Assembly (NCBI RefSeq): GCF_055900595.2
Contig: NZ_CM148325.1
DNA length: 64,000 nucleotides
Direction: 5' to 3' (one strand)
The position numbers were made by a program, and so were the translations under genes. Shown piece by piece: positions 15,897 through 53,429 of the stretch. The notes beneath the pieces are model-generated. The model searched no databases. It saw nothing but the letters and a program-made list of their open reading frames with translations, and was not told the origin of the DNA. Numbering within the stretch: the stretch's first letter is position 1; each line of letters starts with the position of its first letter.

Positions 15897-16066
15897 AATG
15901 GCTCACTCAAGCTTGCTCACGATTGATTCCAGTAACAAACCGTATTGTGTAATTATTTCTATAGCAGGTCGCTATATAGGCTTGTATATATCGAATAATT
16001 TGAAAATCAAAGAGATATGTAGATTTTCACTCGAAAGTAGTATTACGTGTAAGTGAGGAGTAATTA

Positions 16067-16080
16067 TTGTTCGGTATCAA
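16067..16080 (-). promoter_or_regulatory. FNR-box-like site upstream of dmsA (TTGATACCGAACAA on the minus strand)
   Basis: matches TTGAT-N4-ATCAA consensus with one mismatch; lies 12 bp from the prophage att core. Confidence 0.5.
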
Positions 16081-16091
16081 AGGGAGACAAA

Positions 16092-16106
16092 AAAAGCGCC
16101 CGCAGG
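16092..16106. repeat. att core copy, integrase-proximal
   Basis: exact 15-mer shared with 53386..53400. Confidence 0.8.
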
Positions 16107-16192
16107 AGATTTAACGGTACTTACTCCTCTTGCTGATTTCCTTATTTTTCAATAAGTAAACAAAAACAAGGGGAGCAAATTATCACAAATAA

Positions 16193-17197
16193 TTACTGGT
16201 CGATGGACAGTTTATGGACACTTTCAGCCAGCGGATTAAAGCTGATCGCATCCTGTAAAAAGTCCGGTGAAAAATGCGCATACGTCATCGTTTGCTGAAT
16301 CGTGGCGTGACCCAGGATCCTCTGCAACGTGACGATGTTCCCGCCGTTCATCATGAAATGCGTGGCGAACGTGTGCCGCATGACATGCGTGGCCTGCCCT
16401 TTGGGTAAGTCGGGCTTCACCTCCTGAAGGATCTCCCTGAAACTGAGATAATCAACCTGATATAACAGGCCGGTCCGGCGGGTTTTAATTAACGGCACAA
16501 CGGAATCAGCTACAGGAACCGAGCGCGATTTCCCGTTCTTTGTGTTAAAGAACGTCACCCTGTTACCCACGATGTGTTCCCCGCGAAGCGTTGACGCCTC
16601 TTTCCATCTGGCCCCGGTCGAAAGGCACAGAATGGCAATGCGTCGTGCATCACCCTCAAGCCGTTTCAGAAGGCGATCAATCTCGTCATCTGAAAGAAAG
16701 GCCATTTCTGTATTCTGAACCTTGAGTTTACGTATTCCGCGCACAGGGTTTTCGTTATGATAAACCTCCGCGTCAATTAACAACGAAAACATCGCAGATA
16801 AGGCGCACAGGTCGCGATTGATACTGGACGGCATCAGTCCCGCCTGCAACTTATCCGAGCGATACTCAATCACGAATTTTCGTGTCATCTGGCTGGCGCG
16901 CGGGTCCCCCATTTCACGTATCACCTTCTCCAGTCTGGTTCTGTAGGTATCACCATATGCCTGATTACGACCATCAAGCATCCACCACACCTCAATCAGT
17001 TCTGATAACCGCCGTTGATCGGCGGGCCTTGCCTGCCACGGGTTATTGTGGAAATTCTGAAGAACGTATCTTTCGAATTCCTGCGCCTTTGATTTCAGGG
17101 TGAAAATCTTACGAATCCGCCTTCCTCCCGCCCCCTGAGGCCTTACATCAACCTGATAACGTCCGTCTTTGAGTTGCTTAATCGACATGATCAGCAC
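16193..17197 (-). CDS. int: P2-family tyrosine integrase
   Basis: P2 Int-like sequence (KQLKDGRYQVDVRP..., ILCLSTGARW..., catalytic region HVMRHTFATHFMMNGGNIVTLQRILGH...YAHF); true start may be the MSIKQL Met. Confidence 0.9.
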   Translation of the reverse strand: MLIMSIKQLKDGRYQVDVRPQGAGGRRIRKIFTLKSKAQEFERYVLQNFHNNPWQARPADQRRLSELIEVWWMLDGRNQAYGDTYRTRLEKVIREMGDPRASQMTRKFVIEYRSDKLQAGLMPSSINRDLCALSAMFSLLIDAEVYHNENPVRGIRKLKVQNTEMAFLSDDEIDRLLKRLEGDARRIAILCLSTGARWKEASTLRGEHIVGNRVTFFNTKNGKSRSVPVADSVVPLIKTRRTGLLYQVDYLSFREILQEVKPDLPKGQATHVMRHTFATHFMMNGGNIVTLQRILGHATIQQTMTYAHFSPDFLQDAISFNPLAESVHKLSIDQ

Positions 17198-21547: not shown

Positions 21548-21638
21548 GTAACCACTATGCACACACAAAAAAACCGCTTGCCATGCCGCAATCAGTCAGG
21601 TTACATTTCCGCTGCACCTCATAAAACGGGTGCCGGGA

Positions 21639-21833
21639 TTGCAACCCCCGCTGACAACTACAGCGCACAACCGCGCCAGCGGTTTTTTTGTGCGTACCGT
21701 ATCGCCACGTCTTTTTCGCGCCAGAATTATGGCGGGGCGTATGGGGCCGACTTCGGTCGGGCCGGTTTCTGTAGTTGCCGGTGGTTGCAACCCTGTACGT
21801 CTCGCCACCCAGAATTGCAACCTCTGGATGGTG
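21639..21833. repeat. TTGCAAC direct repeats (4 copies; three at ~30-bp spacing upstream of the 21868 gene)
   Basis: copies at 21639, 21766, 21796, 21827 in a ~320-bp noncoding stretch. Confidence 0.6.
21669..21690 (+). terminator. hairpin plus T-run (ACCGCGCCAGCGGTTTTTTT)
   Basis: GC stem followed by seven T. Confidence 0.45.
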
Positions 21834-42540: not shown

Positions 42541-45500
42541 CTAATCTCTGTCACGGAAACTACCGACTGTCTGGCGGATACGGCGTTCCATTTCCGCACG
42601 GACGGCATCACCCACCATTTTTGCCAGTTCGCGCGGGTTTTGCGTGTGAACATCATGCAGGTGAATATGCAGTTCGCCAGTTAATCCCCATGGTGCCGGC
42701 TCACTCTGGCGCGGTCGGGGCGATGCGGGGGATATGGGCTGGCGCACAGCCTCAACCACCGGACGGGATGTTGCCGCCATCACTGGTGTCATTAGCGGGG
42801 AGAACGTCGGCATGACATCGTGAGTCATAACCGGTTTGATCACCGGCGGAACCACTGGCGTAATATTACCGGACAGTACCGGACGGACGACCGGAGGAAT
42901 AACCGGCACATTATTCACGGACACCACCGGCTTCACGACCGGCGACACGTTCGCCGTGGTGGATATCAGCGGCGAAACACTGACAGGCGGTGGCGCTGGC
43001 AGCGGTGGCAACGAAGGCACACTGACCGACGGCACCTGCGGCAGTCTGACAGGTGGCTCACTGACACTACCCGGTAACAGGGAAGCTGCTCGGTTAAAGC
43101 GTTCCTCCTTCCACTCACCACGAACGGCCAGCGCTTCCGGCAGGTTTTTAAAGATAATATCGCCGGGACCAGCGCGTTTTTTCGCCTGTTTCGCCTCATC
43201 CAGCAGACCACCGGTGTTATCGACGATTTTGTTCAGGCGGCGCATAGTGCCGGTATTCTCCCCCGTCAGGGGTGGTTGCCCCCCTTTGGGTTTTTCGCCG
43301 TCTTTTTTATCCTCGTCCTTTTTCGGCGGATTAATGACGTTAACATCCGCCAGAAGCATGGCAGCTTTCTCGTTCAGCAACTCCTTCTGTTTTAGTTCTT
43401 CCGCCTTTTTCCGGGCGCGCTCAACCGCCGACGGAATCAGCCCGAGTTTTTCCAGCACCCGGGTTAATGAGTCAATCAGCAGCGTAACCGGACCGGTCAC
43501 CAGATTGCTGATAAACTCCCCGACCTTCTGCCCGAACGTACGCCCGGCTTCCGTGCACTTGTCCAGCTCATCCTTTGTTGTGCTTACCGGCGCGAACAAA
43601 TCCACGAACCACTGCCACACACGCCCGATTGTCTGCCCGACATACTCAAACAGCGGTCCCAGTGGTGCCACAGCCTCGCGCAGTGGCGTAAGCCCCTGCC
43701 ACAGGCCGGACAAGAACCCGCCCACGACAGCCTTCAGCTGGTCCCAGTGCCGCCAGATAAGCACTGCCGCACCGACCAGTGTCGCCACCACAAGGCCCAC
43801 CGGACTTAACAGAAAACCCAGCGCCCCGCCAAGTGCGCCCACCGCACCACTCACCATCCCCCACAGTGCGGGCAGACCTGACAGTCTGAGCGCCAGTATT
43901 CCGATACCGCGCCCCAGTGAAATCAGTGCGCCGCCAGGTGAAGTGAACGCAGCCAGCAGACCACCACGCAGCGCGCCAAGTCCCGCCTGCACACCACGAA
44001 GCCGCCCCGCAACTACGCCCAGCAGTGCAGCAAACCGTCCGGCACCGGAGGTGATACCGACAAACAGCACGCGCCAGCCACCGATACCGCCCAGCGGACC
44101 ACCGAGTACGCCGCGCAGCTGCGTCAGTAACGGCAGCGCACGACCGAGGCCGGATGTGCCGGTCAGCAGGGCAAACCCAAGACGCAGTTTTGCCAGCGGC
44201 CCCATCAACACACCAGTGGCAAGTGACAGCGCCCCCATGGCCGCAACCGCAGCCAGCAGTACACCACCGGCAATCAGCAGTTGTTTTGTCAGTTCAGGGT
44301 GCGCCTGAGCCAGCGCGGTGACTTTCGCAATAACCCGGGTGAACGACTGCGTGACAGAACGCAGCGGCCCGTCAACGAGGTCAGCGACACGGATACGCAG
44401 TCCTTCCCATGCGCTGTTCAGTGATTTCAGGTCACCGTCCAGGTTATCAGCCATAACACGGGCAGTGTGATTAAGTTCCCCGGTGGCCAGTTCAATCTCC
44501 TGCGTAAGACGGGGAAGATTATTTTCCCCCGCCGCAGTGACAAGATTCATCAGGGAAACATAGGACTCCTGCCCGGCAATAGCCCTGAAAAAGGAGACCT
44601 GCGCGGCATTACCGTATTTTCGGGTGGCCTGGTACAGCTCATTCAGGATATTTTCCATCCGGCGCATGTTCCCGTAAGCATCCTGCGTCTCCACGCCAAG
44701 CTCTTTCAGTGCCATTGCAGCGGCCTTCGGCGGATCAACCAGACGTGACAGACTGGCACGCAGCGCCGTACCTGCATCACTTCCACGGATCCCCACACTG
44801 CCAAGGACACCCGTCATGGCTGCCGCCTGTTCAAGGGACAGGCCAAGTGAAGCTGCAACCGGACCCGTGTACTTCATGGTTTCACCCAGCGAACGGAGAT
44901 CCGTATTGGTTCGTGTGAAGGTGGCGGCCAGCGTGTCACCCACGCGATCCATCTGGTCAGCGGACAGACCAAACTGTGTGAGGATATTCGAACTGATATC
45001 GGCAGTCTGTCCCAGGTCCATCCCTGCAGCCATTGCCAGATCAAGCACGCCGGGTAGCGCCGCCTGTATGGCCTGTGGTGTGAAGCCGGCCATGGCAAGG
45101 AACGCCTGACCGCTGGCAGCATCACCGGCGGTAAACTGCGTTTCAGAGCCCAGCTTAATGGCCTGTTCGCGCAGCGCCTTAAACTGCGGACTGTTTTTGT
45201 CAATACGGGTCAGCGCCTGGACGCGCGACATCTCCTTACCAAAACTGACCGCCGGTTGCAGGAAACGTCCGGCCGCATAGCCGCCTGCCGCCGCCGTACC
45301 AACCGCCGTAAGTCCGACCGTTTTAAGTTTTCCCGCCGTCTCCTGAGCACGGGAATATTGCTGGCGTGCCTGCGTGACACGTGCCAGCGCCTGCCGTTCG
45401 CGTTCCAGCTGGTCGTTGTATTGCTGTGTTCGCCGTATGGCCTGTTGAATGGTGTTGTCACTGCCGGAAAGCGCAATACCGTGGCGCCGCAGCTCACCAC

Positions 45501-49420: not shown

Positions 49421-49672
49421 ATGTTCCGTTGTCCCCTATGCGGTGCATCCGCACGTATCCGCACCAGTCGCAATGAAAATGATTCAGGCACAGTTCGCCT
49501 GAAGTACTACCAGTGCAATAACCTCGAATGCGGGATCGGCTTTACCACACTGGAGGGTTTTAACAAATTCACATCAAAACGCGCCCCGTCGCCGCAGGGT
49601 ACAGAGCGGATACCGTGGGAAGATTTTCCGGGATCTCACAGGGGGAATACTCAGATTAATCTTGATATTTAA
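49421..49672 (+). CDS. ogr: Ogr/Delta-family zinc-finger late transcription activator
   Basis: 83 aa; CPLC...C..NLEC zinc-binding arrangement like P2 Ogr. Confidence 0.85.
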   Translation: MFRCPLCGASARIRTSRNENDSGTVRLKYYQCNNLECGIGFTTLEGFNKFTSKRAPSPQGTERIPWEDFPGSHRGNTQINLDI

Positions 49673-49784
49673 GAACAATAATCAGGTTGAGAGGACATCA
49701 TAAGGCAAGTAGATTAACGGCAGATACTTTCCCGCAACCACGGGCAAGTATTTAATTATCCATGATGAAATATGACCTAAATTG

Positions 49785-49817
49785 TTTTTTGCCCGCCGGA
49801 AAGCGGGCATTTTTTTA
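49785..49817 (+). terminator. terminator hairpin copy 1 (GCCCGCCGGAAAGCGGGC plus T-run)
   Basis: first of nine near-identical hairpins in 49.8-53.0 kb. Confidence 0.7.
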
Positions 49818-50030
49818 TTCTTTTGTGGTTATGGGGTCATCAGGAACCACGTGCAGATTATATTTTTGTTTTTTTGGCGTTCCTCCGGCAGCAACGAGTT
49901 CATCAATAAGACACTGACACGCCTGAACATCCCGGGCATGTCTTAGTTTCACCTTTATTGATTTAACCTTATCCTCACCGGAGGAGAAATGCAGTTCAAT
50001 CTCAATATCGTTTCTTCGGAACAATCTCAT
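49815..50030 (-). CDS. 71-aa hypothetical protein, intact copy of a repeated gene
   Basis: MRLFRRNDIEIELHFSSGEDKVKSIKVKLRHARDVQACQCLIDELVAAGGTPKKQKYNLHVVPDDPITTKE; decayed paralogues at 51101..51199 and 51784..51855. Confidence 0.55.
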   Translation of the reverse strand: MRLFRRNDIEIELHFSSGEDKVKSIKVKLRHARDVQACQCLIDELVAAGGTPKKQKYNLHVVPDDPITTKE

Positions 50031-50123
50031 ACGCCCCCTGAATATATCAGAAATACTAGTATCGAAAAATGAGAAAACAGTTAGACAGGAGAAACATATT
50101 AACACAAATCATTTATACCTATA

Positions 50124-50250: not shown

Positions 50251-50281
50251 TTTTGCCCGCCGGAGAGCGGGCATTTTTTTT
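50251..50281 (+). terminator. terminator hairpin copy 2
   Basis: GCCCGCCGGAGAGCGGGC plus T7. Confidence 0.7.
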
Positions 50282-50450
50282 GCGCCTGCCATCGAGGCGC
50301 CTTCCCTGGCGCACACAAAGCAGCCCTGATTTTCCATGAAAACTTCAGGGTTGAGCTGCGGGCACAAAGTGAGTAGATTAGCTACGGGTACCTCCCCCTG
50401 ACAACAGGAAGGGTGTCCATTATCCATGATATACAAACGAAAAGTCTTGT
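50282..50450 (+). ncRNA. repeated ~170-nt structured module S1 (candidate small RNA)
   Basis: bounded by terminator hairpins; internal hairpins (GCGCC..GGCGC, CCCTGA..TCAGGG, CCTTCC..GGAAGG); four paralogous copies. Confidence 0.35.
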
Positions 50451-50481
50451 TTTTTGCCCGCCGAAGCGCGGGCATTTTTTT
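50451..50481 (+). terminator. terminator hairpin copy 3
   Basis: GCCCGCCGAAGCGCGGGC plus T-run. Confidence 0.7.
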
Positions 50482-50607
50482 ATGCATCAGACAAGATACA
50501 GCCCACCCCAACTGACACCTGAAATATTGCCGCAACAAAAAGAAACAGTTAAATTACGCGCGGGTGCCTTTCGGCTGATGGCCGGAGGGAAAACCTGAAG
50601 GCCGGAT

Positions 50608-50841
50608 GTGGAAAGGCCCCGGAAAACATTTCTGTTTAACCGAGGCCCTAACCGCATTACCTTGACAAGTGAAAGGTTAGCGCCTCTCCGGAAAAGGAGC
50701 AAGTGCTATGTCGCAAAAATCGCTTACGGCCATCACGTTCTGCGTGACGGCAATCCTCATCATCTGGATATTGCACGGTTCGCTGTGCGAAATACGGATG
50801 AGCTTCTGGGGAGCGGAGTTTGCGGCGTTCTTACAATGTAA
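50608..50841 (+). CDS. mok-like overlapping reading frame of hok locus
   Basis: 77-aa ORF starting upstream of and overlapping the hok-like frame, as in hok/mok/sok loci. Confidence 0.5.
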   Translation: MERPRKTFLFNRGPNRITLTSERLAPLRKRSKCYVAKIAYGHHVLRDGNPHHLDIARFAVRNTDELLGSGVCGVLTM

Positions 50842-50848
50842 GAAGTAA
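50708..50848 (+). CDS. hok: Hok/Gef-family type I toxin (intact)
   Basis: 46 aa MSQKSLTAITFCVTAILIIWILHGSLCEIRMSFWGAEFAAFLQCKK; single TM plus conserved SLCEIR motif; 5' GGGTGCCT (50552) complementary to 3' AGGCACCC (50906). Confidence 0.8.
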   Translation: MSQKSLTAITFCVTAILIIWILHGSLCEIRMSFWGAEFAAFLQCKK

Positions 50849-50934
50849 GGAAACCGCGACGGGGGAGCAATCCCCCGTCAATCGGTTGCCAGGGTAAGGT
50901 CGATAAGGCACCCTATCTCACAGACATGAACAAC

Positions 50935-50970
50935 AAACCCGCAGCATAAAAACTGCGGGTTTTCTTTTTG
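50935..50970 (+). terminator. rho-independent terminator of hok transcript
   Basis: AACCCGCAG-CATAAAAA-CTGCGGGTT followed by TTCTTTTT. Confidence 0.7.
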
Positions 50971-51100
50971 GTGTCCTCACCGACTTGAAACAGTGATCAG
51001 ACTATAAGACAAAGCCCGCAATGTTGCGGGCTTACTCTACCTCTCGAAAATGTGGTCACTGCGTGGACATACGCTGATACAAATCCTTTATATCAATAAA

Positions 51101-51199
51101 TTAAATCTTTGTTTTTTTCATCAACAATGATTTAACCTTATCCTCACCGGAGGAGAAATGCAGTTCAATCTCAATATCGTTTCTGTGGAACAGCCTCAT
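51101..51199 (-). pseudogene. truncated paralogue of the 71-aa gene
   Basis: MRLFHRNDIEIELHFSSGEDKVKS then divergent and stop after 32 codons; retains AGGAGG RBS. Confidence 0.55.
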
Positions 51200-51414
51200 A
51201 AGACAACCTCCTGAATTCATCAGAAACACAGTCAACTGAAAACCAGAAAGCAGACAAACAGTGGACACACATTAATACAAATCATTTATACCTATAGATG
51301 AAATTGCAGTTTCATCTATAACATGACAGGTAACAATATTGTGAAAAAACTCAAAACTCGTTAGATTAAAGACGGACAGAGCAATGCTACTTTATCAATA
51401 ACATGTAACCTGTA

Positions 51415-51445: not shown

Positions 51446-51621
51446 TTTTTTTTGCGCCTGCCATCGAGGCGCCTTCCCTGGCGCACACAAAGCAGCCCTG
51501 ATTTTCCATGAAAACTTCAGGGTTGAGCCAAAAGCACAAAGACAGTAGATTAACCACGGGTGCCTTCCACCTGACAACAGGAAGGGTGTCCAGTATCAAT
51601 GACAGACAACTCACATTGCTG
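51446..51621 (+). ncRNA. structured module S2
   Basis: paralogue of S1. Confidence 0.35.
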
Positions 51622-51651
51622 TTTTGCCCGCCGGAAAGCGGGCATTTTTTT
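51622..51651 (+). terminator. terminator hairpin copy 5
   Basis: GCCCGCCGGAAAGCGGGC plus T-run. Confidence 0.7.
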
Positions 51652-51783
51652 ATTCTTTTGTGGTTATTGGGTCATCAGGAACAACATGCAGATTATGCTT
51701 TGATTTTTTTGGTGTTATTACAGCAGCAACGAGTTTATTAATAAGACACTGACATGCCTGAACATCCCTGACATATCATAATT

Positions 51784-52071: not shown

Positions 52072-52102
52072 GTTTTGCCCGCCGGAAAGCGGGCATTTTT
52101 TT
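52072..52102 (+). terminator. terminator hairpin copy 6
   Basis: same hairpin. Confidence 0.7.
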
Positions 52103-52270
52103 GGCGGTTACCATCGCCTCACCTTCCTGGTTCACATGAAGCAACCCTGATTTTCCATGAAAACTTCAGGGTTGAGACAAAAGCACAAAGACAGTAGATT
52201 AACCACGGGTACCTTCCACCTGACAACAGGAAGGCTGTCCAGTATCAATGACAGACAACTCACATTGCTG
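52103..52270 (+). ncRNA. structured module S3
   Basis: paralogue of S1/S2. Confidence 0.35.
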
Positions 52271-52299
52271 TTTTGCCCGCCGGAAAGCGGGCTTTTTTT
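52271..52299 (+). terminator. terminator hairpin copy 7
   Basis: same hairpin, T-run after GGGC. Confidence 0.7.
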
Positions 52300-52471
52300 G
52301 GCAGTTATCATAGCCGCACCTTCCTGGCACATATGAAGCAACCCTGATTTTCCATGAAAACTTCAGGGTTGAGACAAAAGCACAAAAACAGTAGATTAAC
52401 CACGGGTGCCTGCCACCTGACAACAGGAAGGGGTGTCCATTATCCATGATATACAAACGAAAAGTCTTGTC
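52300..52471 (+). ncRNA. structured module S4
   Basis: paralogue, 3' end like S1. Confidence 0.35.
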
Positions 52472-52501
52472 TTTTGCCCGCCAAAGCGCGGGCATTTTTT
52501 T
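52472..52501 (+). terminator. terminator hairpin copy 8
   Basis: GCCCGCCAAAGCGCGGGC plus T-run. Confidence 0.7.
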
Positions 52502-52712
52502 ATGCATCAGACAAGATACAGCCCACCCCAACTAACACCTGAAATATTGCCGCAACAAAAAGAAACGGGTGCCTTTCGGCTGATGGCCGGAGGGAAAACC
52601 TGAAGACCGGATGTGGAAAGGCCCCGGAAAACATCTGTGTTTAACCGAGGCCTGACCCTTCCTACCGTGACAAGTGGAAGGTTAGCGCCTCTTTGTAAAA
52701 GGAGCAAGCGCT

Positions 52713-52853
52713 ATACCGCAAAAAACGATTATTGTTGGCATTTTATGCCTGACAATAACCCTGGTCATCTGGATGGTCCACGATTCGTTATGTGAATTCA
52801 GCTTTGATATCTGAGGAGCGCGTTTTGCGGCGTTCTTGCAGTGTAAACCGTAA
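52713..52853 (+). pseudogene. hok-like toxin pseudogene (second copy)
   Basis: paralogous to 50708..50848 but start codon is ATA and an in-frame TGA replaces the Trp codon; mok-like frame 52613..52795 retained. Confidence 0.7.
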
Positions 52854-52948
52854 GAAACCGCAGCGGGGGAGAAATTCCCCGCTATCCGGTTGTTGGGGTG
52901 GGCCGATATGGCGCCCTTTCCCTGTAGAGACAAAACAAAAAACCAGAT

Positions 52949-52975
52949 TTGCCCGCCATTGAGAGGGCTTTTTTG
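52949..52975 (+). terminator. degenerate terminator hairpin copy 9
   Basis: GCCCGCCATTGAGAGGGC plus T6. Confidence 0.45.
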
Positions 52976-53003: not shown

Positions 53004-53231
53004 TCAGAGGCGCGTAAGCCACCCGGCGTTAACATCCTGCCTGTCAACCCTGGCCGCAGAGTCTGAACGGCAGGTACCGGAAGGAGTACCAAAAACATCC
53101 CTGACAAGTTCCGCCACCTTCCCGATATCATCAGGTGTCACATTCCTCACCTCGGCCGTGATCCGTGGCGTACCATCATCGTTAACAAGAGTGGCTTTAA
53201 AGCTGGTGCGAAGGGAAAACAACATCAACAT
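53004..53231 (-). CDS. hypothetical small protein at prophage end (75 aa)
   Basis: RBS AGGGAGGGG upstream of ATG; last ORF inside the att boundary. Confidence 0.4.
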   Translation of the reverse strand: MLMLFSLRTSFKATLVNDDGTPRITAEVRNVTPDDIGKVAELVRDVFGTPSGTCRSDSAARVDRQDVNAGWLTRL

Positions 53232-53385: not shown

Positions 53386-53400
53386 CAAAAGCGCCCGCAG
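53386..53400. repeat. att core copy, serS-proximal (forms the serS terminator hairpin)
   Basis: AAAAGCGCCCGCAGG identical to 16092..16106; continues as GCGCTTTTT. Confidence 0.8.
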
Positions 53401-53429
53401 GCGCTTTTTAGATTCAGAAAAATTGGGTA

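Follow-up and report, generated by a model that had tools for sequence, protein, structure and literature searches.

A hok-type toxin locus at the end of a P2-like prophage of Escherichia coli and its predicted regulatory anatomy

Among the described members of the Hok family, hokW-sokW of the Stx2 prophage Sp5 is, like the locus considered here, a prophage-borne hok/sok module; toxin and antitoxin activity have both been demonstrated for it, and it doubled the phage released after mitomycin C (Takada et al. 2021, PMC8621323). Hok peptides have also been catalogued on a larger scale. In a set of 1264 of them (Escalera-Maurer et al., bioRxiv 10.1101/2025.08.07.668861), the peptide family of the present locus is cluster 72, two members of which, 72_1621 and 72_1589, were assayed by arabinose induction; just three of the 45 peptides tested were non-toxic, all of them from other clusters. 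The enrichment of hok genes in prophages and the existence of tandem hok “islets” have likewise been reported earlier. At the RNA level, the conformational switch of the hok family was established from coupled covariation, in which a tac-type 5′ element covaries with two partners. The peptide catalogue deliberately left out mok, Sok and mRNA structure. It is this regulatory anatomy that is covered here, which is therefore a new analysis and not a new kind of biology.

The toxin gene and the prophage that carries it

The DNA analyzed (the window) is a stretch of 64,000 nucleotides from contig NZ_CM148325.1 of RefSeq assembly GCF_055900595.2. The toxin gene is located at 50708–50848 on the plus strand and begins with ATG. 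Its 46-aa product, MSQKSLTAITFCVTAILIIWILHGSLCEIRMSFWGAEFAAFLQCKK, has a single transmembrane helix, with a hydrophobic stretch at residues 6–23 and the motif SLCEIR at residues 25–30; helix and motif had both been recognized in the original prediction, made from the sequence alone, and are seen as described. A comparison with the Hok/Gef family had also been proposed there, and the databases agree: Pfam PF01848 (HOK_GEF) matches residues 7–44 (E = 9.8e-7), PHROG 251 matches end to end (E = 8.5e-22), and the RefSeq product, WP_000078913.1, is named “Hok/Gef family protein” (PGAP). The best NCBIfam family is HokA, the HokA and Hok matches both being significant and below the curated cut-offs. 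All seven residues listed as conserved in the Hok catalogue are present with unchanged spacing, logo positions M1, C16, T18, L30, C31, E32, and E41 corresponding to M1, C12, T14, L26, C27, E28, and E37 of the window peptide, and C44 of the peptide is logo position 48.

Peptides of this type are conserved in E. coli, Shigella, E. albertii, Salmonella, Klebsiella, and Citrobacter, and the 601-bp hok region is found at 100% identity in many complete E. coli chromosomes. The window peptide is identical to 72_1621 at 44 of 46 residues, the differences being I21M and K46Q. Since 72_1621 was in the tested set and outside the non-toxic three, the toxicity test suggested with the original prediction has in effect already been done. 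Taken together, and judging from sequence comparison, the locus very probably encodes a type I toxin of the Hok family, has the mRNA architecture of a hok locus, and is located inside a prophage.

Junctions and gene content identify the carrier as a P2-like prophage, integrated at the serS terminator in an E. coli other than K-12. In K-12, the serS-dmsA spacer is 238 bp long and uninterrupted. In the window, K-12-like sequence on the dmsA side extends to 16112 and that on the serS side resumes at 53387, the two flanks overlapping by 21 nt at the junctions. The overlap is the att core, AAAAGCGCCCGCAGG..., which is the serS terminator and is found at both 16092 (attL, 16092–16112) and 53387 (attR, 53387–53407, where the serS terminator is intact). 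Between them lies an insert of 37.3 kb with an integrase ORF adjoining attL (16193–17197, minus strand), P2-family head genes, tail genes, and ogr (49421–49672). The hok gene lies between ogr and attR, 2.5 kb inside the latter. No further copy of the att core was found within the window, so the stretch from ogr to 53387 is all part of the integrated element, with hok as prophage cargo. The flanks are 97–98% identical to K-12 and 100% identical to other E. coli chromosomes. The locus had originally been called prophage-borne on the grounds that none of the K-12 chromosomal hok loci is at this position; the reasoning from position holds, and the att cores place the gene in the prophage, but the host is not K-12. 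A prophage start at about 32 kb, based on an assumed identity to strain LH10-b-1, was considered and rejected, as the window differs there and attL is at 16092.

Several other features of the prophage were observed in passing. In its early region, an Rfam isrK match (60 bits; 21614–21689, plus strand) adjoins a C4 antisense RNA match (80 bits; 21725–21812, plus strand). A match to the STnc130 sRNA of Rfam (128 bits; 15987–16121, plus strand) spans attL, and its 3′ terminator half comes from the phage side, because the phage integrated in a hairpin that it has in common with the serS terminator. Just inside attR, a 75-aa ORF (53004–53231, minus strand) has no PHROG or PADLOC match and is unannotated in a near-identical RefSeq record.

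Predicted mRNA and antisense RNA

The hok promoter is predicted at 50527–50555 (plus strand), with a −35 box TTGCCG (50527–50532), a 17-nt spacer, and a −10 box TAAATT (50550–50555). The predicted transcription start is at 50562, to which position 1 of the Rfam sok/hok-leader model maps, and the promoter and 5′ end align with those of Salmonella hok copies. A generic promoter scan of 50400–51100 found no site at its own threshold, so this promoter and the Sok promoter described below rest on manual reading and homology; both are weak matches to the consensus. The predicted full-length mRNA (50562–50970, plus strand, about 409 nt) runs from the tac 5′ end to the T-run of an intrinsic terminator (50935–50970, plus strand). 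A clean terminator had been noted at first reading, and the hairpin scan recovers it as a hairpin at 50935–50962 followed by the T-run. P2-type homologues also have a terminator, but the Stx-phage copy has none. In phage and plasmid homologues, conserved sequence extends from about 50550 to about 50913.

The minimum-energy fold of 50562–50970 (−181.2 kcal/mol, z = −8.5) pairs 50562–50576 with 50898–50913, bringing together a tac-like element at the 5′ end and a complementary fbi-like element toward the 3′ end (both plus strand). Complementarity of this sort was part of the original prediction. Its 3′ sequence, AGGCACCC, is indeed at 50906 (50906–50913), and the match is beyond chance, but the 5′ sequence, GGGTGCCT, is at 50562 (50562–50569) and not at 50552.

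Conservation of pairing was examined in 17 aligned loci, from E. coli, E. albertii, Salmonella, K. oxytoca, C. braakii, P88, and Sp5. The tac/fbi helix, of 15 bp, is 93% paired in these, and five of its 15 pairs are changed on both sides. For the structure as a whole, 84.5% of alignment cells are paired, vs. 40–44% with the 3′ partners slid, a control that favors the tested structures in that they were taken from the window sequence. A set of 80 IMG/VR loci obtained with the alignment query is nearly identical throughout and adds little covariation.

An alternative partner for tac is found in a ucb-like element, GUGGAAAGGCCCC (50608–50620, plus strand). When the RNA is cut after the post-stop hairpin (50857–50880, plus strand) and refolded, the 5′ end re-pairs with this element, in a tac/ucb helix of 12 pairs that is 89% paired across the alignment, with four pairs changed on both sides. 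Alignment columns 49–50, in tac, covary with fbi columns 402 and 401 and also with ucb columns 90 and 89. Folds and covariation together suggest fbi as the partner of tac in the full-length RNA and the ucb-like element as its partner after 3′ trimming. The post-stop hairpin itself is 98.7% paired, with five of nine pairs compensatory, and is found by the hairpin scan too; it could halt an exonuclease and is likely to be the 3′ boundary of the processed, active mRNA.

Two local hairpins complete the leader. The one at 50615–50647 (plus strand), which would be the Sok target in the full-length form, has compensatory changes in its helices, which are 97% and 91% paired. It can be aligned to the leaders of hokC and hokB, and its complement is the terminator hairpin of the predicted Sok. 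The other (50675–50708, plus strand, 92.5% paired) sequesters the Shine-Dalgarno (SD) sequence of hok: its 5′ arm (50678–50689) includes an anti-SD CUCC at 50686–50689, and the hok SD, GGAG, is at 50696–50699. In the truncated fold, 50642–50654 pairs with 50675–50686, and this helix is 95% paired.

A Sok-like antisense RNA of about 65 nt is predicted on the minus strand from about 50666 to about 50600, its 5′ end being placed by alignment to the annotated sokC. Its predicted promoter has a −35 box TTGCTC (50702–50697), a 17-nt spacer, and a −10 box TAACCT (50679–50674). Of 47 unique homologues, 45 retain AGGTTAG, the complement of this −10 region, although mRNA structure could account for this conservation instead of the −10 box. 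The predicted RNA consists of a 5′ tail and a long hairpin (−31.1 kcal/mol, z = −4.9), and in the E. coli copies its terminator has a short U-run only. The leader aligns base for base with those of K-12 hokC/sokC and hokB/sokB, including the annotated sok genes. It matches the Rfam sok/hok leader model RF01794 over its full length (1–157) with 46.2 bits (E = 6.2e-9); the gathering score is 59, and at the gathering threshold no hok/sok family is found in the window. The sub-gathering score marks what appears to be a divergent subfamily and not a non-member.

Sequence and comparison thus indicate an mRNA (about 350–410 nt, from about 50562) that is closed by the 15-bp tac/fbi pairing, with the hok SD buried in its local hairpin. 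From the folds and the coupled covariation, the following sequence of events can be proposed. Slow 3′ trimming, back to the hairpin at 50857–50880, would remove fbi; tac, thus freed, would pair with 50608–50620; and the released segment 50642–50654 would then capture the anti-SD arm at 50675–50686, opening the hok SD. By homology with sokC and sokB, a short, unstable Sok (about 50666 to 50600), whose promoter overlaps the hok SD, would pair with the leader of the trimmed mRNA and block expression, probably triggering cleavage by RNase III.

Related copies and repeat units

In Salmonella, P2-like prophages at several unrelated sites have the same Hok subfamily immediately following ogr, in one to three tandem copies. 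In the Salmonella arrays, two to three apparently intact copies are spaced about 500 bp apart, either after ogr or adjoining HP1_ORF34-type tail genes. Further members occur in P88-like phages and, in IMG/VR, at the ends of many prophage contigs, and more distant copies (81% nucleotide identity) adjoin lom in Stx phages, including Sp5 and 933W. A scan of genome contigs yielded seven loci only, several of them probably on contaminant contigs in unrelated MAGs. Near-identical hok genes of the E. coli type on short contigs labelled Collinsella, Planococcaceae, and Xanthomonas pisi are most likely contamination.

The original prediction described a single hok copy, missing a second, dead one 2 kb downstream and the repeat array around it. 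The second locus (52567–52975, plus strand) is 78–81% identical to the first and is a pseudogene, having lost its −10 box to a 15-nt deletion and its start codon to a change from ATG to ATA (52713), with the frame stopping after 33 codons (52812). It keeps a sok-like leader (Rfam sok, 42.8 bits), with the predicted antisense promoter and hairpin included, and may therefore be an orphan antitoxin gene. The possibility that the two hok copies are remnants of successive integrations was rejected, as there is no extra att core between ogr and serS.

The repeat array is made up of at least five units of about 200 bp (49640–49822, 50279–50487, 51451–51657, 52101–52306, and 52299–52507). Each has a promoter-like part with an invariant TTGAG(A/C), a 17-nt spacer, and TAGATT, followed by a transcript start GGGT(G/A)CC(T/C) resembling that of the hok mRNA; the first 9–10 transcribed bases are common to both. 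Some 90 unrelated bases come next, and then a hairpin, TTTGCCCGCC..GCGGGCA, with a T-run; this hairpin occurs nine times in all. The units are unannotated, matched no Rfam family, and are present in 30 of 5426 complete E. coli genomes. Going by these common parts, they could be a tandem array of hok-derived small-RNA genes and not debris. The idea that they are internally deleted hok genes was also tried, using gap-tolerant alignment to whole hok loci, and was dropped because the alignment was too noisy to show this; the solid common parts of the units and hok are the promoter, 5′ end, and terminator only. Interleaved with the units are two small ORFs, at 49815–50105 and 51101–51268 (both minus strand), which are related to each other and belong to PHROG 14142 (unknown function), the second being a shortened copy. 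PADLOC has no model matching Hok or the neighboring small ORFs.

Upstream reading frames, possible roles, and comparison with known hok systems

A mok-like frame overlapping hok was another part of the original prediction. The open frame exists (50608–50841, plus strand, GTG start, 77 codons), but it is not conserved and the canonical start position is empty. It begins 100 nt 5′ of hok, vs. 57–58 nt for the mok starts of hokC, hokB, hokW, and R1, and the leader alignment shows no start codon where the hokC mok has its ATG. Of 47 unique homologues with hok intact, 22 lack any ORF, in whichever frame and with ATG, GTG, or TTG as its start, that extends to the hok SD; P88, the Sp5 copy, most Salmonella copies, and very closely related prophage copies from E. 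coli are in this group. Another five have an upstream ORF that reaches the hok SD and lacks an SD of its own, and in the remaining 20, the window copy included, such an ORF has an SD-like motif, so that mok-like coupling may occur in this particular copy. Since it is missing in close relatives, the 50608 frame is not under selection and is treated here as a chance ORF. The sequences corresponding to a “mok SD” (GAGG, 50642–50645) and to “dcb” are conserved, apparently as RNA-pairing elements. With no conserved mok frame in the subfamily, translation of Hok is therefore most likely to start from its own strong SD, and this mok-independent step is proposed with moderate confidence.

The locus could also be read as a canonical mok-dependent one. 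The GTG at 50608 (or else the ATG at 50606 or the TTG at 50662) would then be the start of mok, translation of which would open the hok SD. The frame stays open from 50608 past the start of hok and is preceded, at 6 nt, by a GAAGG motif, and the 20 homologues that keep an SD-preceded upstream ORF could be counted on the same side; the start at −100, the empty mokC ATG position, and the 22 variants without any upstream ORF reaching the hok SD nevertheless make this an unlikely account. Repression by Sok through blocking of the leader ORF, for which the overlap of the predicted Sok with the 50608 start might be cited, is equally unlikely. The mok-independent reading is preferred here, and a further step can tentatively be taken from it. 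Cluster 72 would have a mok-independent switch worked by a three-step helix exchange, in which tac exchanges fbi for ucb, the GAGGCC-CUAACC arm, now free, takes up the anti-SD arm, and the SD of hok is exposed; Sok would act by sequestering the GAGGCC-CUAACC arm, restoring the hairpin that buries the SD; and the units of about 200 bp would be small-RNA genes derived from hok. This combined proposal is a speculative one, clearly less secure than the mok-independent step by itself.

As for what such a module does, it may serve in prophage retention, help lysis on induction as hokW does, or exclude other phages. That it is the same kind of module as hokW-sokW in role as well, with Sok lost on induction and early membrane damage by Hok leading to more phage release, is conceivable but doubtful. 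Although the doubling of phage release after mitomycin C was seen with hokW-sokW in an Stx2 prophage, and Sp5 also has a homologue of the window locus, adjoining lom, the published hokW belongs to another subfamily and lies at another locus, 13 kb away in that phage. P2-like phages, moreover, are generally not SOS-inducible, and the location at the prophage end is just as compatible with prophage retention or the exclusion of other phages. It is very improbable that the locus has no role at all, being a silent relic, as most chromosomal hok loci of K-12 are, intact in sequence but with the toxin never made and nothing selected. The copy 2 kb downstream is clearly dead, and the weakness of the promoter matches would suit a relic, but the ORF, SD, tac, fbi, ucb, and hairpins of the first copy are all intact, with compensatory changes across genera; the peptide is conserved from E. 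coli to Salmonella, Klebsiella, and Citrobacter; many complete genomes have the locus at 100% identity; and a near-identical peptide is toxic.

Overall, the locus is of an already known kind, annotated in RefSeq and in phage records, represented in cluster 72, and with a near-identical toxic peptide. Its discovery value is accordingly low, the exact protein being in RefSeq and the enrichment of Hok in prophages being known. Just two points appear to go beyond the routine, the lack of a conserved mok and the seemingly hok-derived repeat array.

Among K-12 paralogues, the closest to the window peptide is HokA, with 40% identity over 47 residues and the SLCE core and AAFLxCK tail in common. The window peptide is shorter (46 vs. 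50 aa) and scores 30.7 bits against a HokA equivalog cut-off of 89 bits, and the K-12 hokA is disrupted by IS150 and lies outside any prophage. HokW, of 51 aa, is HokD-like and 31% identical to the window peptide, and it has an in-frame mok start 57 nt upstream. The window locus was considered as a possible copy of the published hokW, and this was rejected: the hokW primers map to 57.8 kb in VT2-Sakai, vs. 44.5 kb for the window homologue, and the peptide identity is low. Its match in Sp5 is a second, uncharacterized hok adjoining lom, with 81% nucleotide and 70% amino acid identity. The Stx2 phage Sp5 has two different hok loci, hokW and this 46-aa hok near lom (VT2-Sakai 44540–44906). It is the lom-adjacent type that has the label “MokW-like host killing” (PHROG 251), and this type is a Hok, not a Mok. 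Some caution is called for with the “MokW-like” label of phage databases, placed as it is on a family that is neither Mok nor the published HokW.

The likeness to R1 hok/sok, hokC/sokC, and hokB/sokB lies mostly in the RNA. All have tac/fbi end-pairing and an alternative tac/ucb pairing with coupled covariation, a leader hairpin opposite a short antisense gene (predicted in the window), and a toxin of about 50 aa, and the GAGG...GCCUC “mok-SD/dcb” helix is also present in the window. The peptides are less alike, with HokB and HokC 24–26% identical to that of the window. Unlike the R1-type loci, the window locus has no conserved mok start 57–58 nt upstream and has an extra intrinsic terminator about 20 nt beyond fbi; its RF01794 score is below gathering, and its carrier is a prophage and not a plasmid. 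As a clean, comparison-ready example from a prophage, it would allow a direct test of whether hok needs mok as in R1.
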